A stretch of DNA of 64,000 bases from Candidatus Woesearchaeota archaeon (GCA_964408705.1 CAYPAI010000004.1:57-64056); one strand, 5' to 3'; counted from the stretch's first letter, positions 10,251 to 50,176 are shown. Made by a program: numbers and translations. Notes: a model not told the origin generated them from the letters alone.

Positions 10251-10260
10251 TTTATATATT
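10251..10260 (+). promoter_or_regulatory. Putative archaeal TATA box about 25 nt upstream of the 10280 start, implying a leaderless transcript.
   Basis: tttatatatt lies at -29 to -20 relative to the ATG. This spacing is typical of archaeal leaderless mRNAs. Confidence 0.3.
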
Positions 10261-10279: not shown

Positions 10280-12754
10280 ATGAAAAGAGGTATGTTAATT
10301 TTATTTTTGTTTAGTATTTTATTTATTTCGGGATGTGGACCTCAACAGTCAAGAGATGTTTTGAGTGCCGAAAAATTAGCTAGAACTCAGATAGATAGGA
10401 GTTTTAGTGATGGGTGGCAGTATGATTATGATTTCCAGCCAGACTGGCATGATGATTTCTGGGATCACTATAATAGTGCACGTATAGAAATGTGTTTAGC
10501 TGGTGACGATCAGGCTTGTGAAGATGTACCCCAATGGGAGTTTGAGTGTTATCAAAATCATCATCCTTGTGAACAATGGCCACAGTATGAAACTGGGGAG
10601 TGGGAGTGTGGTATTGGTGAATGTGGGGCTAGTTGTGGAGAGTATTTAGCTTGTGATGATGGTAATCCTTGTTCAAAAGATAGTTGTTCAGATCATCAAT
10701 GTGTCCATGAATATATGGAGCCTGGTCAAATGTGTGCTTATGGAAATACTTATAGTGGTGATAATAGTTATGGTAATTATCATAGATGTGTAACTGTTAC
10801 TGAAGCTTCTCTTACTGAGTTTGAAGCTGCATATTATTCTCCTCAAGGGGATGAGCTAGTGGAAAACGCATATTTAACAGAGACTATTGTATGTAGAGAG
10901 GCAGGTCAAGTTGGAGATGTTTGTGATGTGGATCTTAATTGTGCTGGTGCCGAAACACCAATTCCAACTGCTTTTTGTGATGATATAACTAATTCAAATA
11001 ATCCTACTTGTCAACTTCATCATTGTGGAAATGGGGTTGTTGAATCTCAGTTTGATGAAGAGTGTGATAATGGAGGATCAAACGATTGGTGGGGTTCAGA
11101 GTGTCTTCCTAACTGTAGATTGCCTAACCGAGAATCTAGAAGTAGTGTTAATATTCAAAATACAGGAATTCCTTGTGATTCAGATAGTGATTCTATTACA
11201 GAAGATAATTGGTATTGTCCTACTGAAATAGATGGTTTCATTACTCCTGATACAGAATGTTATCATGGTTTTAATATATGGGATGCAGGAACAATTGATG
11301 CAGAATTTTATAATTCAGGGGAAGGTCAAAGTGATAGGTGTGTAGATGGTCCAATGGGACTTAAATTCCTTGAAGAATATTGGTGTGATCTTTCTGAAAA
11401 TTGTAATGGTCAAGGATGTGTAATGAAGATGAGTAATATAGATTGTGCGGCATTAGTTATAGATCCTGAAACTGCAGAAGTAGATCCTTCAGTAGAAGAT
11501 TATAGTATAGTTTGTCCAGATGATGACAACCCTACTGCTCGTCCTCAATGTGTAGGTTATCCTTCTCCTCCAGATATGCCAAGTTGTGGTAATGGAATAT
11601 GTTCTGTTGAAGAATGTGTATGTTCTGATTCTGGTGATGAAACTCCTGAGTGTAATGGTGCAACTTGTGAATGGGAAGATTGTTTAACTTGTCCTGAGGA
11701 TTGTGGCGTTTGCCAAGGTAATGGAGAATGTGATAATGGAAATGGTAATGTTGCTAATGCTGGAGAAACTTGTTATATGGATTGTGTAGACTCCAATGGA
11801 GATGGCTCTCCAGACACAGATACTTGTCTAAGTCAAGATCTTTCTGGTGATAATTGTGGAAGTTGTTTAAATGATGAACACTGTGGTCCTTTTGAAACTA
11901 TTCAAAATTCTGCAGCATGTGCTATAAGTGATGAATTTCCTCTTTATGGTTATTTATATGTAGGAGGAATGGATGATGATTGGGGATGTGGACCTACAAC
12001 TTCTAGTAAAATGTATTGGGGAGGAGGACTTGATTCAGGAGCATTTAGTTGGGGCGATTGTGGTTGGTCAGGATCGGAATCAACAGATGGTTGTGTAAGT
12101 TTTGCTATGGAAGATGATTGTGGCTGTGGATGGACATGTAAGACATTTGGAACTGGATGTGATGATTGTTCTAAAGGAATTCATCAAAGAGGATATATTA
12201 TAGACTTTCAAAGATTGGGTTCATCTCAACCATTCACATACGGTAGTTTAAGTAACTGGGCAGCTTCATATGATGCTACTCAACCTGGAAATTGGTGGGA
12301 TTGGACTGGTTCTGATGCAGCATGTGTTCATGATGATCATAGATATTATCAAGGTATGGCCTCTCATGATAATTGGGCAACCTATTTATGTGCATTAGCT
12401 CAGAAACCTAGTGGTGCACAACTTTACAAATGGTTAAAGTGTGATAAGAATAATAAAGATGAAGTGCATTATGATACTCTTCATCAAAAAATGTATACTT
12501 GTACTGAAGATACTGTAGCTTGTACTTCAGGGTGTAGTGGTTTTACAAATTTTAAGAAGTATATATGGGAAGAATCAAGTTTCCTTGCAGGAAATTGTGG
12601 ACCAGGTAATATTCAAGAATTATATAGGCCTTCAGGCACTAGAGGAGATGAGGAATATAGATGTGTTTCATATGATATGAGTTGTAAGACTGAAAGAACA
12701 GGCCATTGTGGCGTTGAGCCTTATACTAAATACATGTGGGAGAAAGTTAGGTAG
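10280..12754 (+). CDS. Giant secreted, Cys-rich, acidic and Trp-rich lipoprotein with CGNG...EECD-type cysteine repeats.
   Basis: 824 aa. The leader MKRGMLILFLFSILFISGCG carries a lipobox (ISGC). Repeats include CGNGVVESQFDEECDNGG and CGNGICSVEECVC. The protein is very rich in Cys, Asp and Trp. Confidence 0.8.
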   Translation: MKRGMLILFLFSILFISGCGPQQSRDVLSAEKLARTQIDRSFSDGWQYDYDFQPDWHDDFWDHYNSARIEMCLAGDDQACEDVPQWEFECYQNHHPCEQWPQYETGEWECGIGECGASCGEYLACDDGNPCSKDSCSDHQCVHEYMEPGQMCAYGNTYSGDNSYGNYHRCVTVTEASLTEFEAAYYSPQGDELVENAYLTETIVCREAGQVGDVCDVDLNCAGAETPIPTAFCDDITNSNNPTCQLHHCGNGVVESQFDEECDNGGSNDWWGSECLPNCRLPNRESRSSVNIQNTGIPCDSDSDSITEDNWYCPTEIDGFITPDTECYHGFNIWDAGTIDAEFYNSGEGQSDRCVDGPMGLKFLEEYWCDLSENCNGQGCVMKMSNIDCAALVIDPETAEVDPSVEDYSIVCPDDDNPTARPQCVGYPSPPDMPSCGNGICSVEECVCSDSGDETPECNGATCEWEDCLTCPEDCGVCQGNGECDNGNGNVANAGETCYMDCVDSNGDGSPDTDTCLSQDLSGDNCGSCLNDEHCGPFETIQNSAACAISDEFPLYGYLYVGGMDDDWGCGPTTSSKMYWGGGLDSGAFSWGDCGWSGSESTDGCVSFAMEDDCGCGWTCKTFGTGCDDCSKGIHQRGYIIDFQRLGSSQPFTYGSLSNWAASYDATQPGNWWDWTGSDAACVHDDHRYYQGMASHDNWATYLCALAQKPSGAQLYKWLKCDKNNKDEVHYDTLHQKMYTCTEDTVACTSGCSGFTNFKKYIWEESSFLAGNCGPGNIQELYRPSGTRGDEEYRCVSYDMSCKTERTGHCGVEPYTKYMWEKVR

Positions 12755-12839
12755 TCATTTATAAGGCCTAGTTAATTAAGAATATAGAAATGTTTATATA
12801 TTCGATGTTACATTGTGACATTATAAAGGTGATATCATT

Positions 12840-13322
12840 ATGAAATTTGTAATAAACTTTGAAAAAAAACATTTTTATTCTAGTTTACTTATTTTGGTTG
12901 TTATTGGTGCTGCAAGTTTTGTTTTTGCTGCATATAATCCAGGTCATCCTGGAGATGATATATCTGTTAATTTTAATGGTGAAGTAATGTCTTTGTCTAC
13001 TGCAATGGGTCAATTGAGTGGTGCAGTGAGTGATGTTGAAGCAGTTTCTACTTCGTGTTCTATTACTAGTACAGACATGGGAAATTGTGATCAGGTTGGT
13101 GAATGTGATTGTGAGGTTAGTTGTCCTAGTGGAAAAAAAGTAATTTCTGGTGGAGCTTATATTAATGATCCTACTGATGAAACATGTGGCTTTTCATATA
13201 GTGGTCCTTCTTCAGATGGTTCATCGTGGAAAGTAGGAATGCTTCCAAGAGATCATTGTGGAAACCTTGGTGCTTCTAGTGGTGCAATAACGGTTGTAAC
13301 TACTGCAGTTTGCGTAGGTTAA
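12840..13322 (+). CDS. Small secreted Cys-rich protein with an N-terminal signal anchor.
   Basis: 160 aa. Hydrophobic N-terminus LLILVVIGAASFVFAA. Lies between the two giant genes. Confidence 0.55.
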   Translation: MKFVINFEKKHFYSSLLILVVIGAASFVFAAYNPGHPGDDISVNFNGEVMSLSTAMGQLSGAVSDVEAVSTSCSITSTDMGNCDQVGECDCEVSCPSGKKVISGGAYINDPTDETCGFSYSGPSSDGSSWKVGMLPRDHCGNLGASSGAITVVTTAVCVG

Positions 13323-13342
13323 TAATTATATAAATTTGAAAA

Positions 13343-16300
13343 ATGGAAAAAGGGATAAAAGAGGTAAGAAAAGGGACGTATAATAATTTAGTTTTAGGTT
13401 TAATGTTAGCATGTTTAGTTATTTTTTCTGGTTGTGTAGGAGATTATTCTCCAAGGAATGCAGGTGCTATTAGTTTAGAAGAGAGTTATAAAAATGAGTT
13501 TAACTCAAGAGGATGTGCTGATTCAACCGATGTTAAGTTTCTTGAAGTTAATGCTCGTTCGAATAAATATTCTGCTTCTTGTCATGATATGAGAACCATA
13601 TTGAGAAGTAAAACCTTATCTCAAAAACTTATGGATCCTAATGTTGCTAAGTATTGGGCAATAACTGATAAAGAAGTAAATTCTGCTGATTTTAAAAATT
13701 CCTTAAAAGCTTTTTCGGCGTTAGAGGACAAGCTTAGTATTACTACTATTTATTCTCATCTTGATAAAAATTTGAAGAAAGATGGAACTTATTATAATAG
13801 TGTTTTGACTGATGTAAAGATACCTACTTGTTTAGATGGTAATGTTCTTATGATGGAGTATACTGATACTGGAGATAAAGAATGTTTTACAAGTGAAGAA
13901 ATTGAAAAACAACTTTTACTTGGTTCTAAAACTGTACTTGGTAAATTTGGAAGAGATGTTTTAAAAATAAAGCCAGATTATTCACCTGGAATTTCAAGTA
14001 AAGGGCCAAGTAAATCATGGGTTCAACGTAATTGTCCTTGGTGTGATGATCCACAGTCTAAATTGAAAGAACTTTCATTTATGGATAAGATGAATGACCC
14101 TAGGGTTTTGAAAACTTTTGCTACACCTTTTGGTTCAGGAGTTATGCTTTGGGAAACTGAGCAAGGTGGTTATGAGGTCGCATTTACAGATTCAAAAGGA
14201 CATGGTAAAGATGGAAGTCCACAACCTCAATTAGTATATGAAGGTTTATCAGGTTTACAAATTTTTGGAAATAAAGTTGTAAATTATGATCTTGGAAAAC
14301 TTAGTGAAGATAGAGTAAGATGTAAAACATATGAAAAAGTTGATTATAATTCAGGATGGGCTGGTGAAGCTTTCCCTAAAGATCTTCTTGGAAAATTAAG
14401 TAAGATTGGTCATGATTGTATAGTTCAACCTCCTAAAAGGAATGGAGAAGTTATTGGGGGATCCGCTTCAATAGGTATTGTAGATATATTGGAATGTGAT
14501 CAAATGAATATAAATGGAGAATGGATAGGTGGAGATTGTAATGGAGGAAATGGTCCTACAGGTTGTCAAGTAGGTAGTCCTAATTATTGTTCAAATACTG
14601 GAGATCCTTGTTGTGGAGGAGATCATTGTCTTAAGGATGAAGATTATATTTGTGAAATATCTGATGATACTACTGAGTTGTGTAATTTAGTTGATGTTTG
14701 TGGTGCTGCAGCAGAAGTTAGTGGATGGTACAAAACTTGTACTGGTGCTAGTCCAGCTTGTCCTTCAGCAGGATGGCAGCAATTTGAAGGTATTTTAGCT
14801 GATGACGATTGTGGTCCTTATTCAGTTTGTGGTTATGAAGATCCTGAAACTTCTTTAGATCCATCATGTAAAGTACCTTTACAACAATGTGGTCAAGGTT
14901 CTGGTTCATTATTCTTTCAGGATGGAGAAGATGGTCAAATTTTAGGTTATGATCTTCGAGGAGATCTTAAATCAACAACAGATGCAAAAACAGGAACTAA
15001 AGAGTACCATGATACTAGAAGTAGAACTAATACTTGTGAAGATATAAGTTTAACAGGTGTAAAACCTGATGGAACTACTAAATATATTCAAATGGGACAG
15101 TGTGCTTGTTCTAATGATCATCCAGATGATTGGAAAATAATGAGTGGATGGTATCATGATGCAGTAGCTGCTGGAAGTGGTGAAAGCGAAAGTATATTTG
15201 CATATGATCAAATGGGTTGTGAAAATGATGCTATTGCAGAAGATTGTGGAGAGAATGCAATTCCTTTATGTTATTTGACAACATATACAGGTATGGATGA
15301 TCCATGGTCTTCAGGTTTTGAAGACAAAGGAATAGCAGTTGATAATATGGAATTACCATGGACATTTGTAGACCAATATGGTAATGGCCAAACTTATACT
15401 ATAACTGAAGATGATGTTCAAAATTCACATACTGGTTATTGTGAATGTCCTGAGGGAGTTGTACCTACTACTGCTTGTGATGGACAATTATTAGATGGTG
15501 ATGGAAATGTGATTGATAGTTGTTCAATGTCAGAAGATACTACACCTTATTGGACAATTGATTTTGGTAATAAACATGGTGCACAGAATCATTTATGGGA
15601 AATAGGTCCTTGTCAAGATGGAGAAGGAGTATTTTGTGTAGGTGATGGTTATTGTGAGACTGCATGTGATAGCGATGAAAACTGTCCTGTATTTGAAGGA
15701 GAGAGTCTTGGAATGTATGAATCTTATTTCAATTCACCAGATGATTGTGATCAACATTATTTATTGAATTTTGAATTAAGTACTATGGCTGAACCACATT
15801 CATTAGATGCACTTGGTGTGTGGTGGGGCGGAGAAAATGAATGTAGAGATACTGATTGGGATTGGGATTGGTTATTCTTTGATGAAATATTTAACGCTTA
15901 CGCTTGGGAAAGGCCAGATAATGGATATGCATTTAATGCTGAAACTAGTCAAGAAAGTCAATGTGCTGAAGGGTTCAAGAAGATTTATTGGACAAACTAT
16001 AAAGATACTTATCTTTTTAATGGTGTTGGAGAATTATTCACAGATTCAGATGTTGCGCATATAAGTAATTTTGGTGATACTGAGTGGGCCTCATTCCAGG
16101 AGTCAGATATATATGATGTTCGTTATACAGATTATTATACTAATGATGGTTTAGAACTAACAATAAATGATCAGTTGGCTGTTCCTAATATGTTTGGTTT
16201 TAACACTTACTATAAATTAAAGGCATTTATAGCTGGTGAAGAAGACGATTGGGGTGGAGAACATTGTGGAGGCTGGGGATCAGATAGTCAATCTGATCAA

Positions 16301-16840
16301 GCACATTATACAGTTATGGCTACAGGTTTAAATTTCAAATCATTAAACCCAGAAGGTACATTTGATCTTGGTGAAGCAGGATTCGAAAGTTGTAATGACG
16401 GAGAAGCTGGTGCTTGCAATCTTAAGGCATTAGGTGTCGGTATGACTTGGTGGGGAGATGAAAATAATCTTTGGTATACTATTGGTATAGAAGAAGGATC
16501 TGGAGAGTGGGAACCTTCTGCATGGGAAGATTGTGGAAACTTGTATAGCGCAGATGAAAACAATGAGATAGTTGGACCATGGGATGAAACCTGTCATGTA
16601 GATATACCTGCTGCATTTAATTGGGATGGGGAGTTTGATTATACTTCAGCTAATTTAGATGATATGTCAAGTTGGAGTCCGACTACAGGTGAAGACATTA
16701 CAGTTTATGACTATGATTCTGCAGACTCAGAATGGTTAAATGATATGAATCTAGTTAATAGATGGTATTGTTGTACAAATAACGCAGATAGAAATCGTGA
16801 AAGCGTAGTTTTAGGATGTACAACTGAAATATCTGCTTAA
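13343..16840 (+). CDS. Giant secreted Cys-rich lipoprotein (1165 aa).
   Basis: The leader ...LMLACLVIFSGCVGD carries a lipobox (FSGC). There are Cys-rich modules and Trp-rich acidic segments (WWGGENECRDTDWDWDW, MTWWGDENNLWY). Confidence 0.8.
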   Translation: MEKGIKEVRKGTYNNLVLGLMLACLVIFSGCVGDYSPRNAGAISLEESYKNEFNSRGCADSTDVKFLEVNARSNKYSASCHDMRTILRSKTLSQKLMDPNVAKYWAITDKEVNSADFKNSLKAFSALEDKLSITTIYSHLDKNLKKDGTYYNSVLTDVKIPTCLDGNVLMMEYTDTGDKECFTSEEIEKQLLLGSKTVLGKFGRDVLKIKPDYSPGISSKGPSKSWVQRNCPWCDDPQSKLKELSFMDKMNDPRVLKTFATPFGSGVMLWETEQGGYEVAFTDSKGHGKDGSPQPQLVYEGLSGLQIFGNKVVNYDLGKLSEDRVRCKTYEKVDYNSGWAGEAFPKDLLGKLSKIGHDCIVQPPKRNGEVIGGSASIGIVDILECDQMNINGEWIGGDCNGGNGPTGCQVGSPNYCSNTGDPCCGGDHCLKDEDYICEISDDTTELCNLVDVCGAAAEVSGWYKTCTGASPACPSAGWQQFEGILADDDCGPYSVCGYEDPETSLDPSCKVPLQQCGQGSGSLFFQDGEDGQILGYDLRGDLKSTTDAKTGTKEYHDTRSRTNTCEDISLTGVKPDGTTKYIQMGQCACSNDHPDDWKIMSGWYHDAVAAGSGESESIFAYDQMGCENDAIAEDCGENAIPLCYLTTYTGMDDPWSSGFEDKGIAVDNMELPWTFVDQYGNGQTYTITEDDVQNSHTGYCECPEGVVPTTACDGQLLDGDGNVIDSCSMSEDTTPYWTIDFGNKHGAQNHLWEIGPCQDGEGVFCVGDGYCETACDSDENCPVFEGESLGMYESYFNSPDDCDQHYLLNFELSTMAEPHSLDALGVWWGGENECRDTDWDWDWLFFDEIFNAYAWERPDNGYAFNAETSQESQCAEGFKKIYWTNYKDTYLFNGVGELFTDSDVAHISNFGDTEWASFQESDIYDVRYTDYYTNDGLELTINDQLAVPNMFGFNTYYKLKAFIAGEEDDWGGEHCGGWGSDSQSDQAHYTVMATGLNFKSLNPEGTFDLGEAGFESCNDGEAGACNLKALGVGMTWWGDENNLWYTIGIEEGSGEWEPSAWEDCGNLYSADENNEIVGPWDETCHVDIPAAFNWDGEFDYTSANLDDMSSWSPTTGEDITVYDYDSADSEWLNDMNLVNRWYCCTNNADRNRESVVLGCTTEISA

Positions 16841-16880
16841 TTTCTTTTCTTTTTCTTTTTCTTTTTCTTTTTCTTTTAAA
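16841..16880 (+). repeat. Simple pyrimidine (CTTTT/CTTTTT)n repeat and oligo-T tract directly after the giant gene stop. This is a likely archaeal oligo-T terminator.
   Basis: The sequence is tttcttttctttttctttttctttttctttt. Confidence 0.4.
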
Positions 16881-18883: not shown

Positions 18884-20776
18884 TTGTTGTTTATACCTCT
18901 TGCATCTGCAGAGGTAGATAATTATTATGGATATTCTGAACTTATAATAGATTATGAGTTTAATACTGAAGTTGAACTTGATGGTGGTAATGATCTCGAT
19001 TATTTAAATGCTAATTTAACATTAATCCCGTTAGAGAGTTATAGGCAAGAAGTTATTAGTTTTTATCCAAATTCTAATCCAGTTTCTGAGATAGTACATG
19101 GTGATACTTTTTTAAATTATATTTGGAATGAGTATAATCCAATATTTCAGATAGGAATTGAATCTAGTATAAAATCTAAAAGTTCATTCCATAAGTTAGA
19201 TCATATTTCTTTTCCAATAATAGATTTAGATGAGAATTATCAAATGTATCTTCAAGAAGGTGAAAAGATAGATATTACTGATGATATAGTGAATAAAGCT
19301 GCAGAGATAGTTGCAGGAGAAGATGATTTGTATACTGCCGTATTCAAACTTGCAGATTGGACGAGAAATAATATTGAATATGACTTAAATTCATTAACCG
19401 CTAAAGCTGCACTAAAATCCTCATGGGTTTTAGAGAATAGGCAAGGAGTTTGCGATGAGATGACTTCATTATTTATATCTTTTTGTAGGTCTGTAGGAAT
19501 TCCTGCAAGATTTATATCTGGTACAGCTTATACTAATGTAGATTATAGTTTTGGTAATCATGGGTGGGCAGAAGTTTATTTTCCAGATCATGGATGGGTA
19601 CCATATGATGTTACTTTTGGAGAATATTCTTGGTTAAACCCTGCACATATTAGTCTTGCTAAATCTCTAGATAGTGGAGATTCTGCAATAAAATATAGTT
19701 GGATGGGAAATAATATTGATATAGAAACTACTCCTATAATTATTAATGCAGAGGTAGTTTCTGAAGGAGATTATCTTGAACCAATTTTTGATATTGATGT
19801 CGATTTTTTAGTCGATCAAGTTGCCCCTGGAAGTTATGTCCCTGTAAGAGTTTCAATAGACAATAATTTTGATAAGTATGTTACTAATACTATATTTATA
19901 ACTAAATCGCCCTCTCCCTTGGCAGTAAAGGATAATCCTAGGCCAATATTAATGAAGCCTAACCAAGAAAAGTCTTCATTTTGGACGATAAAAGTTCCAA
20001 GTGATGTTGATCCCGGGTATGTTTATACTTCTACATTTGAGGTAAAAGATATTTTTGGATCAATTTCTTCGGATACTTTAGAATTTTCTCAACAATATGA
20101 ATTGTTTACTCAAGATGAAGCTTTGTCTTTAATTGAAGGCTTAGAAGAAGAAGAGGATATGACCTATTCTGAAAATATATTTTTAGAATGTTCTTCTTCA
20201 AAAGATTATTATTATTTTTTTGAAAAAGTAAAAATAAATTGTGAGGTGCAAAATATTGGAAATACTTTAATCAGTGAACTAAGAGTTTGTTTATATGAGG
20301 AATGTGAAGATATTGATTTAAATATAGCACAAAAGAAGAATATTTTCTTTAATACCGATCCTTCTATTGGGAATTTAGCAGTCTCTGCTAAGAATTCTGA
20401 TCTTGAAGTGTATTCCTTTATAAATTTCCTAATTTTGGATTCTCCAGACTTAGAGGTATCAAATTTTGAGTTTAAAGATATTGTAAGTTATAATGATAAA
20501 CTTGATATTTCCTTTGTGTTAAGTTCTAAGGCAATAATCAATAATTTAGAAATAGTTGTTGGTGGATTGGAACCAATTAATATTGAAAAAACAAAGGAAT
20601 CAATACCTGTTTCTATAAATACAGATGCCAAATATTTTATAGATAGAGTTGATTTAGTTATAAATTATGAAGATGAATATGGTAATAAATTTTCAATTGA
20701 AGAATTTAAAAGTATAAATATAAATGATATTCCTTGGTATGCTAGATTTTTTAATTTGTTTAGAAGGATTTTTTAA
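18884..20776 (+). CDS. Secreted transglutaminase-like (Cys-His-Asp) domain protein.
   Basis: The transglutaminase-like core reads QGVCDEMTSLFISFCRSVGIPARFISG...GNHGWAEVYFPDHGWVPYDVT. An in-frame signal-peptide-like segment (KKIILLFLLFIPLASA) sits upstream of the TTG start and has no ATG. Confidence 0.75.
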   Translation: MLFIPLASAEVDNYYGYSELIIDYEFNTEVELDGGNDLDYLNANLTLIPLESYRQEVISFYPNSNPVSEIVHGDTFLNYIWNEYNPIFQIGIESSIKSKSSFHKLDHISFPIIDLDENYQMYLQEGEKIDITDDIVNKAAEIVAGEDDLYTAVFKLADWTRNNIEYDLNSLTAKAALKSSWVLENRQGVCDEMTSLFISFCRSVGIPARFISGTAYTNVDYSFGNHGWAEVYFPDHGWVPYDVTFGEYSWLNPAHISLAKSLDSGDSAIKYSWMGNNIDIETTPIIINAEVVSEGDYLEPIFDIDVDFLVDQVAPGSYVPVRVSIDNNFDKYVTNTIFITKSPSPLAVKDNPRPILMKPNQEKSSFWTIKVPSDVDPGYVYTSTFEVKDIFGSISSDTLEFSQQYELFTQDEALSLIEGLEEEEDMTYSENIFLECSSSKDYYYFFEKVKINCEVQNIGNTLISELRVCLYEECEDIDLNIAQKKNIFFNTDPSIGNLAVSAKNSDLEVYSFINFLILDSPDLEVSNFEFKDIVSYNDKLDISFVLSSKAIINNLEIVVGGLEPINIEKTKESIPVSINTDAKYFIDRVDLVINYEDEYGNKFSIEEFKSININDIPWYARFFNLFRRIF

Positions 20777-24224: not shown

Positions 24225-24782
24225 TTGATTGTTATGAAAAAGTTTAGTTTTATTTTATGTTTATTTTTGGTAAGTCTTTTATTTATTTCAAGTTGCTACG
24301 ATAGCAATGTGTTCAGGAAGAATGATGTAGCAGAATTTTGTGTAGGTGAAGGTGAATCAATAGCTATAACTCACCCAGATTATGCCGAGGATTGTTGTGA
24401 AGGTCTTGTACAAATTTCTAATAAAGATCCAGACTTTTCGGGGGCAGGTATATGTACTGGAAATTGTGGAGATGGGATATGTAATGAAGATTCAGAATCA
24501 AGTTATAATTGTGAAATAGATTGTGAATTGAATGATTCTAGAAATACTTCAGATGATGTTTTTAATGATTTTGATCAAGATGCTTCAGAGGAAGAAGTAG
24601 AATCAAATACTGAAGGCCCCAGGTGGGAAGATGTTTATGAAGATACTCAGTGTAATGGGGATGATGCAATTGCCATAATCTTTGAATTGGTTCAACAATC
24701 TGCTACTAATGAGCAGATAATGGAAGCTATGTGTGATATTAATTGTGAAGAATTGAACCCTCAAGACTATATTTGTTCTTAA
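24225..24782 (+). CDS. Secreted Cys-rich acidic lipoprotein carrying the shared 66-aa EFCVGEGES...EIDCEL module.
   Basis: The signal peptide has a lipobox (LLFISSC). Nucleotides 24331..24526 are 100% identical to 39282..39477. Confidence 0.7.
   Translation: MIVMKKFSFILCLFLVSLLFISSCYDSNVFRKNDVAEFCVGEGESIAITHPDYAEDCCEGLVQISNKDPDFSGAGICTGNCGDGICNEDSESSYNCEIDCELNDSRNTSDDVFNDFDQDASEEEVESNTEGPRWEDVYEDTQCNGDDAIAIIFELVQQSATNEQIMEAMCDINCEELNPQDYICS
24331..24526 (+). repeat. Copy 1 of a 196-bp segment that is 100% identical between two different lipoprotein genes.
   Basis: cagaattttgtgtaggtgaaggtgaatcaatagctataactcacccagattatgccgaggattgttgtgaagg... ...gtgaaatagattgtga is identical to 39282..39477. 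Confidence 0.85.
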
Positions 24783-28105: not shown

Positions 28106-28214
28106 TTGGACGAGAATGAGATAGAAATCTTGTTTATAAAATATATGTTTGATTTATTATTTTATTTTTTAAATAATGGAAAGTTATTTAAATTGTTTTT
28201 ATTATAATTTAAGT

Positions 28215-35486: not shown

Positions 35487-36425
35487 ATGAAAATAAATAT
35501 TATTACTTTATTATTAATCATATTAGGTATTTTATCTTTTCAAGAGCTAGAGATTATAACTAATAGTCCTTATTTTTATTCTGATTCGGGAATTATCAAG
35601 TGTGAAGATGCTAAGATTGGAGATAGGGGTAGACTTAATGGGAATTTATATTTAGCAGTTGATGAAAAGATCCTTAGGTCTATGGATCCTGGTGAAAGGG
35701 GTGATGATTATACAACTTTTTGTGTGTCTCATGTTACAGATATGGGTTATTTGTTTTATAATGCGCATAGTTTTAATCAACCAATTGGATATTGGGATAC
35801 TAGCAATGTAGTAAATATGGGGTTTATGTTTTATAATGCAATAGATTTTAATCAACCAATTGGGTCTTGGAATACTAGTAATGTAGTTGATATGACTCAT
35901 CATTTCTATCTTGCAGAAAATTTCAATCAACCCTTAGATTCTTGGGATGTTAGTAAAGTGATAGATATGTCACGTATGTTTTCATATGCGTATAAGTTCA
36001 ATCAACCCTTAGATTCTTGGGATGTTAGTAGTTTAAAGTATATGCCTACTATGTTTGATAATGCAATAGATTTTAATCAACCAATTGGGTCTTGGAATAC
36101 TAGTAATGTGGAAAATATGGAGCTTATGTTTATGGATGCAGAAAATTTCAATCAACCAATTGGCTCTTGGGATGTTAGTGAAGTTACAACATTTCGTTAT
36201 TTATTTTATGATGCATATAACTTTAATCAACCCTTAGATTCTTGGAATACTAGTAATGTGGAAAATATGGAGCTTATGTTTGTTAATAGTTCATCTTTTA
36301 ATCAAGATTTGAGTGGGTGGAATGTAGATAAAGTTACAGATTATAGAAGATATGATTGTAATACTTTGGTTTGGGATGACAGTTATAAACCTTTTGAACC
36401 ATTTGGATGTGATGTTTTAGAATAA
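35487..36425 (+). CDS. Secreted protein built from about eight tandem 26-residue DUF285/BspA-like surface repeats.
   Basis: There is a signal peptide. The repeating unit is MF.NA..FNQPIGSWDTSNV.DM. The DNA is repetitive, with near-identical stretches of 38-60 nt. Confidence 0.75.
   Translation: MKINIITLLLIILGILSFQELEIITNSPYFYSDSGIIKCEDAKIGDRGRLNGNLYLAVDEKILRSMDPGERGDDYTTFCVSHVTDMGYLFYNAHSFNQPIGYWDTSNVVNMGFMFYNAIDFNQPIGSWNTSNVVDMTHHFYLAENFNQPLDSWDVSKVIDMSRMFSYAYKFNQPLDSWDVSSLKYMPTMFDNAIDFNQPIGSWNTSNVENMELMFMDAENFNQPIGSWDVSEVTTFRYLFYDAYNFNQPLDSWNTSNVENMELMFVNSSSFNQDLSGWNVDKVTDYRRYDCNTLVWDDSYKPFEPFGCDVLE
35760..36300 (+). repeat. Intragenic tandem repeats of about 78 bp that encode the 26-residue units.
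   Basis: ttcaatcaacccttagattcttgggatgttagta occurs at about 35925 and about 36001. tttaatcaacc...tcttggaatactagtaatgtggaaaatatggagcttatgttt occurs at about 36068 and about 36224. Confidence 0.7.
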
Positions 36426-37566: not shown

Positions 37567-37664
37567 TTTTAGTTATATTTTTATATTATGGATTATTATG
37601 AAACTTATGAAAAGAGGTATTTTGATTTTATTTTTGTTTAGTCTTTTATTTATTTCTAGTTGCG
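37567..37664 (+). repeat. Copy 1 of a roughly 98-bp promoter-proximal plus signal-peptide cassette (leader repeat).
   Basis: ttttagttatatttttatattatggattattatgaaacttatgaaaagaggtattttgattttatttttgtttagtcttttatttatttctagttgcg differs at 3 positions from 39067..39164. Confidence 0.8.
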
Positions 37665-39043
37665 ATTCTAAAATAAATTTTTTTACTAAAGAAATTACTT
37701 TAATTTGGGAAAAAGAAGTAAACACTTTTGCACATAGCTCTCCAGATTATGCTGATTTAAATAAAGATGGAGTGGAAGATGTGATCATAGTGGGAGGGAC
37801 AATTCCTTTTTTTGGAAGTTTAATTGCCTTAAATGGTGTTGATGGTTCCGTCTTATGGGAAAAACCACTACCAAATTTTTCTTCTGCAACTCCTGCTAAA
37901 CTTGAGAGCAGTGGTGATGATATCACTGATTTTGTTATTGGTATTTCCGCAGATACAAATACAGATTTAACTAGTAGAGATCCAGAATTATCAGATTTGA
38001 TTATGGTTAATGGTAAGGATGGTTCCTTATTATGGAGTTTTCGTAAACAAAATATAAATTTTACTTTTTCAGATACTCATTTTAGTTCAGCAGTTGTATT
38101 AGATGATCGTAATGAAGATGGAGTAGAAGATATAATTATATTGCAATCCGGAGGATTTGATGATATTCGTTCAGATAATCTAGGTTGGGACGATACTCAA
38201 AGGCCAACCTCATCATTATTTATTGTTTCAGGTAAAGATGGTAAAATTTTACAACAAAAAAATGTTGATGACGGAAAGGAAAGTTATGCTACCCCTGCCG
38301 TCTCTTCTAAGTTAGGGCTTATTATTTTAGGTACAGGTGGAGAAACTATCTCTGGAAATTTAATTGCTTTGGATTATTTTACATTAGAAGAAATTTGGAG
38401 AGTACCTTCTTATGGCATGGGGTTTATTTCTTCACCAGTTTTATCAGAGGATGAAAGATATGTTTTTGGAATTAGTTATAATGGGGAAATTTTTAAAATT
38501 GATGCCTTAAGAGGGAATATCATATGGAATAAAATTTGGTTTGACTCTATAGTTTATGCTTCGCCAACATTAGGTAAATTTAATGAAGATGAACATATTG
38601 ATGTAGTTGCCCTTATAAATTCAGATCGTTATTCTAATATATTTATAATAGACGGATTTAATGGTGAGATTATTTCTGAGTTTGAAAAAAGTAAAGGAAC
38701 TATTCCGACTCCACTTGTGCTAGATTATAACAATGATGGTATTGATGATTTGTTGACTTTAATGAATACTGGTTGTAGAATGGAGGGGAATGGTCCGCCT
38801 GATTGTAGTGGTTCATTACTCCAAATATGGGATGTTGGGTCTTCTAAAAAGATATTGGATATAAAGAGGTTACCTGGTTCTTTAGCTACACCATTTTTGA
38901 GAGATTTAGATAATGATAAAGAATTAGATTTATTAATAAATGTTATAGGTAAAGTCTTTAGATATGAGTTTAATTTAGATGTTGATGCAATAAATATGAC
39001 TTGGGATCATTTTCGTGGACCGTTTAGGCAAGGAAGAATATAA
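37598..39043 (+). CDS. Lipoprotein with FG-GAP/integrin-alpha-like calcium-binding beta-propeller repeats.
   Basis: The leader is MKLMKRGILILFLFSLLFISSCD. Repeats with D-x-N/D-x-DG-x-x-D loops include DLNKDGVEDVIIVGG, DDRNEDGVEDIIIL, DYNNDGIDDLLTL and DLDNDKELDLLINV. Confidence 0.7.
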   Translation: MKLMKRGILILFLFSLLFISSCDSKINFFTKEITLIWEKEVNTFAHSSPDYADLNKDGVEDVIIVGGTIPFFGSLIALNGVDGSVLWEKPLPNFSSATPAKLESSGDDITDFVIGISADTNTDLTSRDPELSDLIMVNGKDGSLLWSFRKQNINFTFSDTHFSSAVVLDDRNEDGVEDIIILQSGGFDDIRSDNLGWDDTQRPTSSLFIVSGKDGKILQQKNVDDGKESYATPAVSSKLGLIILGTGGETISGNLIALDYFTLEEIWRVPSYGMGFISSPVLSEDERYVFGISYNGEIFKIDALRGNIIWNKIWFDSIVYASPTLGKFNEDEHIDVVALINSDRYSNIFIIDGFNGEIISEFEKSKGTIPTPLVLDYNNDGIDDLLTLMNTGCRMEGNGPPDCSGSLLQIWDVGSSKKILDIKRLPGSLATPFLRDLDNDKELDLLINVIGKVFRYEFNLDVDAINMTWDHFRGPFRQGRI

Positions 39044-39066: not shown

Positions 39067-39164
39067 TTTTAGTTACATTTTTATATTATGGATTATTATG
39101 AAACTTATGAAAAGGGGTATTTTGACTTTATTTTTGTTTAGTCTTTTATTTATTTCTAGTTGCG
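39067..39164 (+). repeat. Copy 2 of the leader cassette, exactly 1500 bp downstream of copy 1.
   Basis: There are 95 identical positions out of 98. It covers the upstream AT-rich region and the first 22 codons (MKLMKRGIL.LFLFSLLFISSC). Confidence 0.8.
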
Positions 39165-40291
39165 GAGTTTGTACTAAGGAAGGTAAGGTGTGTGAGGATG
39201 GTACAGTTGTTGGAAGAGAAGGTCCTGATTGTGAGTTTGCAGAATGCCCTGATTTAGTAGAACTTCAAGAAGAAGTTGAACCAGAATTTTGTGTAGGTGA
39301 AGGTGAATCAATAGCTATAACTCACCCAGATTATGCCGAGGATTGTTGTGAAGGTCTTGTACAAATTTCTAATAAAGATCCAGACTTTTCGGGGGCAGGT
39401 ATATGTACTGGAAATTGTGGAGATGGGATATGTAATGAAGATTCAGAATCAAGTTATAATTGTGAAATAGATTGTGAGTTAGAACCAACGGAATATAATC
39501 TTGATCTAACTATGAAAGATCTTCCAGAAGGATATCAAGAAATAGAAGAATATTTGCCAAAATATGGCGAAGTTTTTGGGGTTCATTTTTTTGCTAGTAA
39601 TAAAGTTTCAGATGCAAAATTAATTTATGCAATGAATATAATGGCAGAATATTTAGATAATGATAAAGATGGATCGCCTGATAATCCTTTAGTTGTAGAT
39701 AGGATGGTTTCAGATAAAGTTGGTATGATGATGTTTGAAGACGAAGACGAAGACGAAGATTCCGAGTTATGGGAATCAGATTTAGAGATTATAGGTTTGG
39801 ATAACTTACAAGGATTATATGAAGATGAAACAAACCCATCTGGATCTAGATTTGATGCAAGTTTAGAAGAGATATTACACTTAATTACTCAAAGAGGTTA
39901 TGCAGAAGTATATCCAGAAATATTTGGAGAATTTTCAGGATCAACTGTTGCAAATTTAATGGACGAAGCAAGAGGTGGACATTTTGAGGAAGGTACAAAT
40001 TGGGATGAAGATAGTGGGGAAGGAGATAGTGCAGTTCCAAATTCTTATCCATCTGAATCTTGGTATCATTATGATGATGAAACATGTGACTATGCTTGTA
40101 TGATCACAGAGTATGTATATTGGTCGCTCACTTCTATCCTTGGAGCACAAGAAAATAGATGTTCAGACATAGATCATGAATGGGAGTTATGTACTAAAGA
40201 AAAAGTTCAAGAAAAAGATTCTGGAATATATAATCTTTTAACAGATCCACAGTATAAATTTGCAACTATTATTCCTGATGGATCATATTAA
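39098..40291 (+). CDS. Secreted Cys-rich acidic lipoprotein carrying the shared 66-aa EFCVGEGES...EIDCEL module.
   Basis: The leader MKLMKRGILTLFLFSLLFISSCG is nearly identical to that of the upstream gene. Nucleotides 39282..39477 are identical to 24331..24526. Confidence 0.7.
   Translation: MKLMKRGILTLFLFSLLFISSCGVCTKEGKVCEDGTVVGREGPDCEFAECPDLVELQEEVEPEFCVGEGESIAITHPDYAEDCCEGLVQISNKDPDFSGAGICTGNCGDGICNEDSESSYNCEIDCELEPTEYNLDLTMKDLPEGYQEIEEYLPKYGEVFGVHFFASNKVSDAKLIYAMNIMAEYLDNDKDGSPDNPLVVDRMVSDKVGMMMFEDEDEDEDSELWESDLEIIGLDNLQGLYEDETNPSGSRFDASLEEILHLITQRGYAEVYPEIFGEFSGSTVANLMDEARGGHFEEGTNWDEDSGEGDSAVPNSYPSESWYHYDDETCDYACMITEYVYWSLTSILGAQENRCSDIDHEWELCTKEKVQEKDSGIYNLLTDPQYKFATIIPDGSY
39282..39477 (+). 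repeat. Copy 2 of the 196-bp identical segment.
   Basis: It matches 24331..24526 base for base. The flanking sequence diverges immediately on both sides. Confidence 0.85.
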
Positions 40292-42690: not shown

Positions 42691-43158
42691 ATGAAAAAAA
42701 GAGGAATTTCTCCATTGATAGCTACTGTTCTTTTAATAGGTATGACTATAATGGTTTCAGTTATTGTTTTTACTTTTGTTAGAACAACTATCGAGGATAA
42801 AACTAGTGAAACTGAAATGCAAAGTAATATTCTTTTGGCATGTTCTCAAACTTTAGATCTCGAATATAATGATCCTATTATTTGTGGGGCTGATCAAAAC
42901 TTAATAGTTACAGTGTGGAATAGAAGTCCGATAGATGTAGTTGATCTTAAAATACAAGTTGTTTCCAATCAAGATTCAATGTTATTTGAGAGTGGAGTTT
43001 TAAATTCTTACAATAAAGAGTTATATGATATTGATCTTTCTTTCGGGGTGGGAGATATTAGTAGTATAATTTTAATTCCTACATTAGAGTTAGGTGATTC
43101 AGAGGGTACTTGTCCAGGAGAAGTTATAAACATTAATGATATCTTACCTTGTAATTAG
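42691..43158 (+). CDS. Archaeal type IV pilin-like protein with a class III signal peptide.
   Basis: The N-terminus MKKRG|ISPLIATVLLIGMTIMVSVIVF matches the canonical Pilin_N leader. This is [KR]G followed by hydrophobic residues, with cleavage after G by prepilin peptidase. The mature domain is small, about 150 aa. Confidence 0.7.
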   Translation: MKKRGISPLIATVLLIGMTIMVSVIVFTFVRTTIEDKTSETEMQSNILLACSQTLDLEYNDPIICGADQNLIVTVWNRSPIDVVDLKIQVVSNQDSMLFESGVLNSYNKELYDIDLSFGVGDISSIILIPTLELGDSEGTCPGEVININDILPCN

Positions 43159-43199
43159 CGAAATTTTTATAAATGATTAGATTATTAATATGAATTATT

Positions 43200-46100
43200 A
43201 TGGATTTTAAAAAGAGTGGTCTATTTAGTTTTATAGTTTTAGTATTATTGTTTATTTCTGGTTGTGTTCCTCAATTTAATGCAGAAGATTATGCTCAACT
43301 CTCTGATGAATCCAAATTAGTTGTTAATAAATATTTTAGTGGTACTAGGGAAGTTGTTTGTGGACCTTGGGAATTTCACCAATCATGTGGAGAAGATAGT
43401 TACTGTGCAAGTAGTACCGGAGATTTAGATAAGTCAAGATTTAGAAGAGAATGTTGGAATACTGGCGGAGGCGGAGGCGGAGTTCCATGTCTATCTTGGC
43501 CAGATGGTCCTTGTAATGTACCTTTAAGTCCGATGGTAAACTCTGATGATGTTTTTTATGAAGAAGGTGATGATTTTATAGTTGTTAAAAGTAAGTCAGT
43601 TATGGAAGAACTTAGCTCATTATTTAATAAATATGGTGGAGTTAAATTAGCTCCAGTTAGATCTAAATCTGAGGTAGGTAAACATATTAAAGGAAATAGA
43701 GATCTTAGTAATGTTGAAAAGAAGCCATTACGTCCTAAACCTTTAGAAAGTAGGACATGGTATCAATATAAGTGTGAGACGGATTCTTTATGTACTAACA
43801 CTTGTGGTGATGGACGTTTAAATAATTTAAATAATGCTGCAGGAGGAGATTTAGGTTGTACTTCTGCGACTTCATTTAGCAATGGTCAAGAAGAAGAAAT
43901 ATATTTTAGTTCTTATCCAAATTGGGAAACTAACTCTCATGAAACTAGGGATAGGGGACAATGTTCTAATCTTTTTGGGCAAGGCGGTTCGTGGATTAAT
44001 GATAATGGGTTATGTACTGGGGAAAGTGATGGTGTATATGATTTTAATTTAGATGCTCCTGGTGTTTGGGTAGATGGAGATGGTGATGCTTATGCACAAA
44101 TGATTAATCCACATTATTATAATATATATGGTGAAATGGGTTATTGGACAAATTATTTCTTTTGTGGTAGTCAAGATAGTTTTTGTTATATTAATCTAGG
44201 TGGTGCTGCTCATTCAGAAGAAGGGACATTAACTATGAACAATGGTTTGGTTCTTAATCACTTTGTATATGTTGGTGATCATTATTGTCAAGGATGGGCA
44301 GATGGTGAAGTTTGGGTAGCTTGTAGTGAAGGTGAGGATGAATGTTATGAAGGTACCATAGATTATTCTCCTTATCATAATAGTGTGTTGGGTATTCCTG
44401 ACCAAGAAGGTTGGTTCACTTTTAATGATTTTGAGACAGTTAGTGCAGATTATTATGGTTCTAATGAATGGCAAGATGGTACTGTTGAGACTGCTTATGG
44501 TTACGGTTGGGTCGATGGAGAAGGAATTTTCCAACATGATTGTGCCAAAGGTCCTTTAGATTGTGATGCTGGTGGAGACTCTAGAGTTGAAGATTGTGAT
44601 TTAGGCACTCATCATAGTGATGCATATGGTAATATTGATTGGTATGATTCTGTACTTGATGATGCAGATGATTCTAATTCTAATTGTGATTATGGTGATC
44701 ACACCGAAGTATGTGCAGGATGGAAATATACTGGAGATTGGGGAGATTGTACAGGTGCTATACCAGGTACTGAGCCTGCAGGTGCTCTTTGTAATGATGG
44801 TTATGATAATGATTGTGATGGTTATGGAGATAGTTTTGATACGGAATGTGGATCATGTTTAGAAACTCAAGGAGGAGGTACTGAAACTGAAGTAAATGGA
44901 GATTATCAACAATGTGGAACTAATGAAGGATTGTGTGAGTTTGGAACACAATATAGGAGTTGTGTATTTGGTACTGGAGTTTCAGGAGATGGTTTATGGT
45001 CTTGGGAATCTGATTGGGGAGACTGTGGTGATGGTGCTTTAGGTGATTATGTTGGAGAAGCTTGTGAAGATGCTATTGATTGTCCTTCAAGTTGTGCTGA
45101 TGGGGTAGATAATAATTGTGACGGATTAGTAGATGGTGCTGATCCTCTTTGTGATGCTGATTGTTTATATGGAGTTGATTCTGATCAAACTCAAGCTTGT
45201 GGTTATGATTATGAAGTTGATGATGTAACTTCTGAGGAGACTACTGATGGAAATTGGGATAATGGAGTATGTATAACTGGTAGTCAAAGTAGATCTTGTC
45301 AAGTAGATGGTACTTGGGCTAATTGGGGTGCTTGTAGTCATACTGGTCCAGATGGTGCTGAGAATTCTGCAGCAGGAAATTGTGATGATGGTTATGATAA
45401 TGATTGTGATGGTACTGGTGATGATGGAGAATCTGGAGAAGATTGTGGAGAATGTTTAGAAGGTAGTTTATTTTATTTCACTAATGGTGATGATGATATT
45501 TGTGAAGAATCTTGGTGGGTAGGTGATCAATGTTCAGCAGGAACATTTACTTCTACTTGTACTTTTGATGGATCTGTGGGTGGTTATTTCTATCCTACAT
45601 GGGTTTCTAGTCCTTTTGACGGAAATTGGGAAGATTGTGAGTATGAAGATGGACCTGTAGATGAAATTTGTTGGAATGGGTTAGATGATGACTGTGATGG
45701 AATTCCAGATAGTGAAGAGGAAGTATGTGACTCTTTTGGTATTGAGTTCTTGAATGTTCCTTCGTTTAGTAATGAACAAGGAGATGAATCTTCAATTACA
45801 TTGTTTAATGATCAACCATTTATTATTAGTAGTTTTATGGAAACTGGAAGCCCTTCAAATATTAATAGTTTAGCTTATGCTAAATATGTTGGAGAGGGTG
45901 GAAATTGTGGTTACGAAGGAGAATATGGTCAGTCAGTTACTTATGATTTTCAATGTGGATTTATTCAAAGAGGTACTCCTGGATTTATTTTTGATTCTAT
46001 AGTTGGTCAACAAAACTCAATAGTTTCAGATTCTAATGGGGTTTATGCGGCTTATTCTAATTGGCTACCAGATGATGGGAATTACAAATTTAAGTTTGCT

Positions 46101-47039: not shown

Positions 47040-47077
47040 ATAAAAAAAGATATAAATAAGTGCTTCTAATTATTATT

Positions 47078-48904: not shown

Positions 48905-48946
48905 ATTAGAAAGTTATATAAATGAAAATTTGTGAAATATAATATT

Positions 48947-50176
48947 ATGGAAAAAAGAGGAATTTCTCCATTGATAGCCACTATTTTACTTATTGGGTTA
49001 GTAGTAGTTATTGCTTTATTTGTATTTAATTGGATTGGTTCTGTTATTGATTCTCAAACTTCATCTACAGATGATTTAATGGAAACTTATATGACTGATC
49101 TTAGTTTTGATTTTGAGTGTCAAAATGATATAGATTTATCTGAAATTTATATAATGTTTAGTAATAACTATCATGGACCAATAGATTCATTTTTATTGTT
49201 GTATAATGATAGTACTATGTTATCCTTAGATGGTATTTTTTCACTTGAACCATATCAATCTGCTAGCTATACTGTAGTAAGTAAGAATAGTCAGTTTATA
49301 GAAGCTATACCATTAATTGAGATTAATGGAGAACTTCAATCTATTAATCATAAAAAAGTTTTGAGAACTTGTACAGACGTTGGTGCTCCTGTTGCATGTA
49401 GTGATGGGCTAGATAATGATGGTGATGGTTATTCAGATTTAGATGATCCTGATTGTGAAGGTGATTCTGAAGGTGAAGTAGAAGGTGGAACAATTTCTTT
49501 CAGTAGTTGTGATGATGAAAATCTAGATGATTTTTTTGATGATGGATATCCTTTTGTGTTAATGGATAACATAGATGATGTTGATGGAGATTGTTTAGTA
49601 TTTCAAAATATAGATGAAGGAATTACTATTGATTGCGAAGGTCATTATATTCATGGAGGTAATGATGTTGATTCTCAATATGGTATTTATATTTATAATT
49701 CAGATTATTTTGAGTTTAGGGATTGTGAAATAAGTGGTTTTGAGTATGGTATTGCTCTTCAAGAAGGTTCTGATTATAATATTTTTGAAGATATATCTTT
49801 GACTAACAATTGGGGCCAGGGTCAAGGTACTGGTTTGTTTTTTGGTGTACCTATGGGATTCGACCAGAATAATTATAATACTTTTAGAGATATTCTGATT
49901 GAAGATGGTTATTCTGGTTTTAAGTATAATGATGATGCTTTTGGATTTAATCCTTTTAATTTAGGTAATGAATTCATAAATATTCAGTTTGGTGATCACG
50001 AGGGTACTTCATTTTGGTGTTTAGGGAATACCCCTATCGATCTTGCTTCGGCTGCTACAGGGTTTGGAGTAGGATTAGATAGTGGAGATATATTTTGCGG
50101 AACTTCCGCTTGTCTTCAGACTTGCTATGAATCTTTAGGTCTTGATTTTGTAGGCTTAGGTTGTAGCGCATGTTAG
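48947..50176 (+). CDS. Type IV pilin-like protein with a class III signal peptide, fused to a Ca-binding-like CSDGLDNDGDGYSD motif and a parallel beta-helix-like C-terminal domain.
   Basis: The leader MEKRG|ISPLIATILLIGLVVVIALFVF is nearly identical to that of 42691. The ORF track begins 5 codons earlier, at 48932. The C-terminal region has repeating beta-helix-like rungs (GIYIYNSDYFEFRDCEISGFEYGIALQEGSDYNIFEDISLTNN). Confidence 0.7.
   Translation: MEKRGISPLIATILLIGLVVVIALFVFNWIGSVIDSQTSSTDDLMETYMTDLSFDFECQNDIDLSEIYIMFSNNYHGPIDSFLLLYNDSTMLSLDGIFSLEPYQSASYTVVSKNSQFIEAIPLIEINGELQSINHKKVLRTCTDVGAPVACSDGLDNDGDGYSDLDDPDCEGDSEGEVEGGTISFSSCDDENLDDFFDDGYPFVLMDNIDDVDGDCLVFQNIDEGITIDCEGHYIHGGNDVDSQYGIYIYNSDYFEFRDCEISGFEYGIALQEGSDYNIFEDISLTNNWGQGQGTGLFFGVPMGFDQNNYNTFRDILIEDGYSGFKYNDDAFGFNPFNLGNEFINIQFGDHEGTSFWCLGNTPIDLASAATGFGVGLDSGDIFCGTSACLQTCYESLGLDFVGLGCSAC

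Follow-up and report, generated by a model that had tools for sequence, protein, structure and literature searches.

Genes of the locus

A 64,000-nt stretch of DNA from a Candidatus Woesearchaeota archaeon (GCA_964408705.1 CAYPAI010000004.1:57-64056), below called the window, contains at positions 10280-16840 an island of three genes for cysteine-rich proteins. Two large proteins, A824 and C1165, have leaders ending in a lipobox, and the gene of a small protein, B160, lies between their genes. A824 and C1165 are very probably exported, lipobox-bearing, disulfide-rich, glycan-free and strongly acidic surface proteins of this Woesearchaeote, and B160 their exported companion. The genes are:

10280..12754, plus strand: A824, open reading frame (ORF) of 824 amino acids, isoelectric point about 4, 69 cysteines, predicted lipoprotein
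12840..13322, plus strand: B160, 160 amino acids, N-terminal hydrophobic leader or anchor, C-terminal domain with 8 cysteines
13343..16840, plus strand: C1165, 1165 amino acids, isoelectric point about 4.2, 52 cysteines, predicted lipoprotein

The three ORFs lie exactly where the initial annotation of the window had placed them. That annotation had also allowed for the possibility that they were artificially fused. However, the same 20-kb stretch is present in ten independent assemblies, compared through the contigs that encode an identical L15e protein, and all ten show identical gene structure, nucleotide identity of at least 99.9% and no frameshifts. Since, in addition, A824 and C1165 have homologues (see below), the genes are neither artefacts nor fusions.

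Across the ten contigs the island contains about five sites of single-nucleotide polymorphism (12906, 15428, 15892, 15977 and 16820), mostly within C1165. No variation in the presence of the island among strains was seen, as the recovered contigs all carry it and come from a single near-clonal population. A search for a sister strain via the 90% cluster of L15e yielded only a 963-bp contig. Five of the ten assemblies (contigs L050, L051, L054, L055 and L056; window positions 14551, 16503, 16849 and 15756) are interrupted within C1165 or at its border, although the sequences there are near-identical. Problems of coverage or micro-heterogeneity in this gene could be the cause.

Leader peptides

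10280..10336, plus strand: signal peptide of A824 with lipobox, MKRGMLILFLFSILFIS-G-C19
13343..13435, plus strand: signal peptide of C1165 with a lipobox-like end ...LVIFS-G-C31, phenylalanine at position -3

The leader of an archaeal lipoprotein is expected to have an n-region with positive charge, then a hydrophobic core and, no further than ~35 residues from the N-terminus, the motif [LVI][ASTVI][GAS]C. Both large proteins have the charged n-region, the core and the lipobox. The N-terminus of A824, MKRGMLILFLFSILFISGC, consists of MKRG, the core LILFLFSILF and I-S-G-C, with the lipobox cysteine at residue 19. The N-terminus of C1165, MEKGIKEVRKGTYNNLVLGLMLACLVIFSGC, has an n-region rich in lysine and arginine followed by LVLGLMLACLVI and F-S-G-C, with the lipobox cysteine at residue 31. 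B160 has a single N-terminal hydrophobic segment. None of the three proteins contains other transmembrane-like segments, and no PGF-CTERM, other C-terminal anchor or C-terminal hydrophobic segment was found in any of them. Thus the export of all three proteins and the lipobox leaders of the two large ones, both assumed in the initial annotation, are supported.

A near-identical leader, MKRGxLxLFLFSxLFIS[GS]C, occurs on five proteins. At least four of them are encoded in the window, with the leaders starting at 10280 (A824), 28215 (an internal methionine of the ORF at 28176), 37604 and 39104 (the ORFs at 37598 and 39098). The fifth is the A824 homologue P0002, where the leader reads MKRGMLVLLLFSILIISSC and starts at position 8502 of contig L001. 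One of the proteins with this leader is a beta-propeller of the FG-GAP/PQQ type. More divergent lipobox leaders are found on C1165, on the product of the ORF at 24225 and on E1279, a large protein encoded in a second island of the window.

Sequon avoidance and cysteine parity

N-glycosylation sequons were defined as N-x-S/T with x other than proline, and the expected numbers were derived from shuffles. There are no sequons in A824 (5.7 expected), B160 (1.3), C1165 (9.0) or P0002 (8.6), and one in each of the two fragments homologous to C1165. Taken together, the island proteins and their homologues contain 2 sequons against 31.7 expected (Poisson P ~9e-12), and the three island proteins alone contain 0 against 16. 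Among seven control motifs, five occur at the expected frequency (reverse [ST]-x-N, N-[ST], N-x-x-[ST], D-x-[ST] and Q-x-[ST]), whereas N-x-C falls somewhat short of expectation (6 vs 12.3, P 0.04) and N-x-[AG] somewhat exceeds it (42 vs 32.7).

The window ORFs that lack the composition of exported proteins and have at least 9% of lysine plus arginine are not depleted in sequons (69 vs 75.6 expected). On the other hand, depletion is seen in other large exported proteins of the window, namely E1279 (0 vs 12), F614 (1 vs 5.9) and a transglutaminase-like protein (1 vs 6.2). The eight most depleted exported proteins together contain 3 sequons, with ~45 expected, and the depletion is strongest at 10280-16840, 18884-20776 and 43200-50176. 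It is not universal among exported proteins, as the ORFs at 35487-36425, 37598-39043 and 24225-24782 do not show it. The simplest reading of this pattern is selection against N-glycosylation, which would mean that these proteins encounter an extracytoplasmic oligosaccharyltransferase.

The parity of cysteine counts was considered in 16 proteins, the exported proteins of the window and P0002, after subtraction of the lipobox cysteine. The number of cysteines in the mature protein is even in 15 of the 16 (P 2.6e-4), whereas among the non-exported ORFs 11 have an even and 15 an odd number. This rule fits complete pairwise disulfide bonding, with the lipobox cysteine retained for another fate, and would imply that this archaeon systematically pairs the cysteines of its exported proteins in disulfides outside the cell. 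Sequon avoidance and cysteine parity are statistics that can be applied to whole DPANN secretomes, where they could flag proteins of the same class; together they would demonstrate that an oligosaccharyltransferase and a system for extracellular disulfide formation both operate in these tiny cells.

Homologues and modular evolution

10892..12574, plus strand: conserved cysteine-rich core of A824, residues ~205-765, 64% identical to P0002
13514..14554, plus strand: tandem N-terminal modules of C1165, ~170 amino acids each, residues ~58-230 and 231-404
15014..16555, plus strand: region of C1165 covered by the fragments P0006 and P0005, residues 558-1071

All three proteins were compared with 5.8 billion protein clusters by a word-index search, and C1165 also with 1.84 billion representatives by an exhaustive HMMER search. 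The clusters contain one relative of A824, the full-length protein P0002 (909 amino acids, 61% identity, with identical runs of more than 30 residues). For B160 they contain only a near-identical copy (P0004, 99%). In the case of C1165 the clusters yielded near-identical copies only, and HMMER found the protein itself and two fragments, P0005 (68% identity) and P0006 (40% identity), both on contigs of ~1 kb. Thus the proteins are lineage-restricted, with one homologue known for A824 and two fragments for C1165. Scans of loci in GTDB genomes (for A824 only), JGI metagenome contigs and IMG/VR produced no relatives; each relied on two short peptide patterns, and thus this negative result is weak.

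The cysteines are conserved better than the rest of the sequence. In the core shared by A824 and P0002, 46 of 49 cysteines (94%) are retained, compared with 64% identity overall, and in the two fragments of C1165 the numbers are 6 of 6 and 11 of 13. The ratio of nonsynonymous to synonymous substitution rates (dN/dS) between A824 and P0002 is ~0.5, with the cysteine framework kept.

The N-terminal part of P0002, about 200 amino acids long, is homologous to the N-terminal module of C1165, whereas A824 has no such module. Residues 5-205 of P0002 align with residues 17-220 of C1165 with a BLASTP E-value of 6e-9, and with the second copy of the module with E-values of 0.002-0.05; the two copies within C1165 align with each other with an E-value of 0.01. 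Since P0002 and C1165 share modules, the modules move between these lipoprotein genes. Thus the genes evolve fast and in modules. When paralogy was sought by BLASTP and hhalign among A824, B160, C1165 and the proteins of the second island (43200-50176), the only relationships seen were those of the leader and the N-terminal module.

Contig L001 ends 150 bp past the gene of P0002. The region 11290-11382 of this contig looks like the 5' end of a 5S rRNA, but the truncated piece has no match in Rfam.

Composition and internal motifs

11024..11116, plus strand: the only full CGNG..EECDNGG..C...C module, A824 residues 249-279, CGNGVVESQFDEECDNGGSNDWWGSECLPNC
11585..11785, plus strand: cysteine-dense stretch, A824 residues 436-502, with a second CGNG and a partial copy of the module; no family match
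15821..15871, plus strand: tryptophan-rich block WWGGENECRDTDWDWDW, C1165 residues 827-843

Cysteine accounts for 8.4% of residues in A824, 5.0% in B160 and 4.5% in C1165. The tryptophan content is 3.0% in A824 and 2.9% in C1165, compared with a median of ~0.9% (range 0-3.1%) in the other ORFs of the window. The net charges of A824 and C1165 are -104 and -122, respectively.

The initial annotation described A824 as a protein with repeats of the CGNG...EECD type akin to the cysteine-rich repeats of myxobacteria. The string itself is present at residues 249-279. However, it does not form a repeat array, as there is one full CG[DN]G module and two partial ones, 187 and 43 residues apart: a bare CGNG at residue 436 and the copy QGNGECDNGNG..C...C at residues 479-502. 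BLASTP comparison of A824 with itself revealed no internal repeats, whereas proteins with the TIGR02232 (myxo_disulf_rpt) or DUF4215 domains contain tandem arrays. The full module does share with these families its acidic character and the spacing CG[DN]G ... E-x-CD-[DN]-G ... C...C, with two insertions of two residues relative to what we take to be the family consensus. Nevertheless, the scores are far below the cut-offs. The isolated segment scores 11.1 bits with DUF4215 (cut-off 27, E 0.53) and does not match TIGR02232; the latter model gives 7.6 bits (cut-off 20.8) at residues 110-157, and the full-length A824 has no match to either model at E<=1. Thus A824 cannot be assigned to these families, and the suggested kinship with the myxobacterial repeats was not upheld.

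Similarly, the tryptophan-rich segments reported for C1165 amount to a single WDWDW, in the block WWGGENECRDTDWDWDW, plus two WW sites. At the position of WDWDW, the two homologous fragments read WMGGVENECRDGDWAWDF and SGAVSDCNDEAGSDLF, so that the block is not conserved and, judging by this alignment, is a local idiosyncrasy of C1165.

Two more motifs of A824 occur once each. Residues 125-143 (CDDGNPCSKDSCSDHQCVH) resemble the C-x-D-x-N-x-C-x-x-D-x-C repeat of the Dictyostelium CTDC proteins. The corresponding model Dicty_CTDC (PF00526) scores 17.8 bits here, with a cut-off of 27, which may be resemblance or noise. Residues 504-514 (DSNGDGSPDTD) resemble a calcium-binding loop of the TSP3/EF type. 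No model of EGF-like or TSP3-like modules matched.

Possible function

On the whole, the best explanation (probability roughly 0.6) is that the large proteins are surface proteins anchored by a lipid, stabilised by disulfides and free of glycans, and that they are probably adhesins or mediate contact with a host. All three proteins would be translocated by the Sec pathway. A824 would then be lipid-modified at Cys19 and C1165 at Cys31, and most likely both would stay attached to the cytoplasmic membrane on its outer side, with B160 secreted or signal-anchored and probably co-expressed with C1165. Numerous disulfides (at most 34 in A824 and 25 in C1165) may stabilise the very acidic ectodomains, and selection against N-x-S/T sequons would keep these domains free of N-glycans. 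The genes evolve fast and in modular fashion, with the cysteine framework retained. The proteins most likely serve the contact of an attached or symbiotic cell with the outside world by adhesion or recognition, with bound cations possibly helping.

The predicted lipidation agrees with what is known about other archaea. In archaeal lipobox lipoproteins, for which Haloferax volcanii with its Sec/Tat export and AliA/AliB lipidation serves as the model (PMC12462473), as in A824 and C1165, an n-region and a hydrophobic core precede [LVI/F]-S-G-C. According to predictions, lipoproteins are widespread in DPANN archaea, and the AliA family of lipidation enzymes occurs there (PMC12462473). The parity rule also fits a lipobox cysteine that would be unavailable for disulfides. 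On the other hand, the characterised lipoproteins are mostly substrate-binding or redox proteins with known folds, whereas A824 and C1165 have no recognisable domain and far more cysteines, come from an uncultured Woesearchaeote and are lipoproteins by prediction.

Several observations weigh against this interpretation. All Pfam, NCBIfam and PHROG models, those of adhesion, lectin, Ig and EGF domains included, stay below their cut-offs in A824, B160 and C1165, searched as full proteins and as seven plus five excised sub-segments. The sub-threshold matches (ADDT, Dicty_CTDC, DUF4215, TIGR02232 and DUF5334) were set aside as compositional or too weak. Sequence and profile searches of PDB yielded nothing below E 0.05. 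AlphaFold2 models are unusable, with predicted local distance difference test (pLDDT) values of 27 for A824 (alignment of two sequences) and 31 for C1165 (three sequences). With neither a domain nor a usable model, it is location, composition and analogy that suggest an adhesion-type function. The phenylalanine at position -3 of C1165 falls outside the strict [LVI] motif, although the broader lipobox rule of the PROSITE type permits it. To our knowledge, lipidation has never been shown in Woesearchaeota. No gene of AliA, AglB or a disulfide oxidoreductase was identified in the 64-kb window, AliA not having been looked for. Finally, the gene of P0002 has an unrelated neighbourhood, with no gene similar to B160 or C1165 in the 150 bp before the contig end, and thus A824, B160 and C1165 do not form a conserved cluster.

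The lack of any recognisable extracellular fold, which the initial annotation had listed as a possible argument against its own reading, was indeed the outcome of the profile and PDB searches. It reflects orphan sequences and failed structure prediction, and thus is not evidence for a cytoplasmic location.

The specific role is a matter for a more tentative proposal. A role in adhering to or recognising a host cell, particle or polymer has somewhat less than an even chance of being correct; it is suggested by the location of the proteins, their mode of evolution and the analogy with the SPEARE proteins. The latter, described in Candidatus Nanohaloarchaeum antarcticus, are transmembrane-anchored proteins of 3,000-8,500 amino acids (up to 8,553) with laminin-G, protease, toxin-like and restriction-endonuclease domains (PMC6642349). 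Like A824 and C1165, they come from DPANN archaea, are mostly extracytoplasmic and have variable outer parts, and a role at the interface of symbiont and host has been proposed for them. However, A824 and C1165 are five to ten times smaller, lipobox-anchored by prediction and contain none of the SPEARE domains recognised by Pfam. Thus they are not SPEARE-type proteins, whose length exceeds 3,000 amino acids, and the label "giant" given to them at first was generous.

A bolder suggestion, which we regard as rather unlikely, is that A824, C1165 and similar genes of the window constitute a repertoire of surface ligands that are variable, devoid of glycans, knotted by disulfides and new in fold, diversified by module exchange and gene conversion in the manner of a surface-antigen or host-range system, and deciding to which host cells the archaeon attaches. 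Although DPANN archaea are believed to spend their lives on the surface of other cells, no attachment molecule of Woesearchaeota is known. A824, B160 and C1165 are concrete candidates for this function. The result itself is descriptive: it concerns orphan proteins that are nearly unique to one marine lineage and belong to a known kind, the cysteine-rich surface lipoproteins of DPANN, and does not establish a mechanism.

Alternative explanations

The proteins could form a structural envelope, that is, a coat similar to the surface layer (S-layer) or a stabilising surface matrix, rather than act as specific adhesins. We consider this improbable, but it fares best among the alternatives. It would account for large, acidic, abundant-looking surface proteins with a conserved leader and for several similar genes in one 64-kb window, and sequon avoidance could also be a result of saving the cost of glycans on abundant proteins. 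However, the S-layer proteins of archaea usually carry many N-glycans and contain little cysteine. With 0 sequons where 16 are expected, 4.5-8.4% of cysteine, and neither PGF-CTERM nor another C-terminal anchor or hydrophobic segment, the island proteins do not belong to the archaeal S-layer glycoproteins. Moreover, the very narrow phyletic range and fast modular evolution are unlike those of a core envelope protein, and the homologue of A824 differs in domain make-up.

Slightly less probable is extracellular binding of metals or other cations, with cysteines as thiolate ligands of Fe, Zn, Cu or Ni and acidic residues binding Ca or Mg, for scavenging or buffering in oxygen-poor water. The very high cysteine content with CxxC and CxC spacings, the strongly negative charge and the single TSP3/EF-like motif DSNGDGSPDTD of A824 agree with such a role. 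The names of the metagenome-assembled genomes (MAGs) and marine assemblies containing the relatives also suggest low-oxygen water columns as the habitat, where disulfides may be less stable; a search of the literature with the sample accessions yielded nothing on this habitat. Nevertheless, the even number of mature cysteines in 15 of 16 exported proteins favours pairwise bonds over clusters, no metal-binding family matched, and on inspection the cysteine spacing is unlike that of ferredoxin-type or metallothionein-type motifs.

A third possibility is that the proteins are secreted or surface effectors directed at a host or competitor, such as toxins, pore formers or lytic enzymes whose catalytic fold escaped recognition. 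DPANN archaea depend on hosts, some of their surface proteins, e.g. SPEARE, carry toxin or protease domains (PMC6642349), and the dN/dS ratio of ~0.5 fits an arms race. Yet searches of Pfam, NCBIfam, PHROGs and PDB revealed neither a catalytic nor a toxin domain, and we consider this explanation quite improbable. The sole enzyme-like match is that of ADDT (PF18724) to residues 652-740 of A824. It scores 17.8 bits with a cut-off of 26.2, covers a segment rich in cysteine and aromatic residues, and would be biologically senseless outside the cell.

The remaining question is whether the genes are native. The neighbouring genes are archaeal housekeeping genes encoding L15e, TFIIE-alpha, FttA/aCPSF1 and several aminoacyl-tRNA synthetases. 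FttA of the window has 91% identity to its counterpart from a Candidatus Woesearchaeota MAG, and its remaining close matches come from MAGs of Woesearchaeota or Nanoarchaeota, in agreement with the DPANN origin proposed from the sequence. The initial annotation had noted the higher GC content of the island genes. The difference is real: 0.377 in A824, 0.362 in B160 and 0.351 in C1165, compared with 0.22-0.33 (~0.27) in neighbouring genes. However, the GC content at third codon positions (GC3) is 0.162, 0.124 and 0.148, respectively, at or below the genome background of ~0.17, and thus the excess is confined to codon positions 1 and 2. Hence it is caused by amino acid composition (the proteins contain much Gly, Asp, Cys, Ala and Trp but little Lys, Ile and Asn) and not by transfer, and does not indicate foreign origin. 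No phage or viral relatives were found by the pattern-based scan of viral contigs, by tblastn on phage genomes or in PHROGs. Neither flanking repeats nor tRNA genes in or next to the island were found, and there is no integrase among the Pfam-annotated neighbours. Thus A824, B160 and C1165 are native genes of the Woesearchaeote, and recent acquisition of viral, host-derived or other mobile DNA, for which only the GC content of 0.35-0.38 and the narrow phyletic distribution could be cited, is highly improbable in view of the native GC3, the leader common to other native lipoproteins and the lack of any traces of mobility.

Expression signals

10251..10258, plus strand: TATA-box-like TTTATATA, read from the sequence, ending 21 nt 5' of the start codon of A824
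12793..12800, plus strand: TATA-box-like TTTATATA 5' of the B160 gene, with a GGTGA downstream of it, 7 nt ahead of the ATG
16841..16877, plus strand: T-rich (CTTTT)n tract, a perfect pyrimidine run directly after the stop codon of C1165 and before the promoter region of L15e

The box upstream of A824 is a candidate archaeal promoter. As it lies 21 nt from the ATG, it suggests a leaderless or near-leaderless mRNA. The box upstream of B160 may have a similar role. The gap between B160 and C1165 is 20 nt, and thus these genes are probably co-transcribed. The (CTTTT)n tract resembles an archaeal oligo-T terminator and may have this function.

Related genes elsewhere in the window

The second island, at 42691-50176, mixes proteins of several types, and no Pfam match was found for any of them. 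E1279 is a lipobox giant with 60 mature cysteines and four DNDCDG-type motifs, and F614 is its paralogue with a signal peptide (BLASTP E 1e-16). The products of the ORFs at 42691-43158 and 48932-50176 have archaeal class III, pilin-like leaders (RGISPLIATxLLIG).

An exact repeat of 196 nt occurs at 24331-24526 and 39282-39477, inside the cysteine-rich lipoprotein genes 24225-24782 and 39098-40291, and encodes the module EFCVGEGES...CGDGICNEDSESSYNCEIDC. The match of one contig, L049, to the window ends at 24167, ~165 nt 5' of the repeat. Four assemblies of this population, other than that of the window, have GTA and not TCG at positions 24438-24440 of the first copy. Thus the first copy in the window looks as if it had been patched from the second one by gene conversion.

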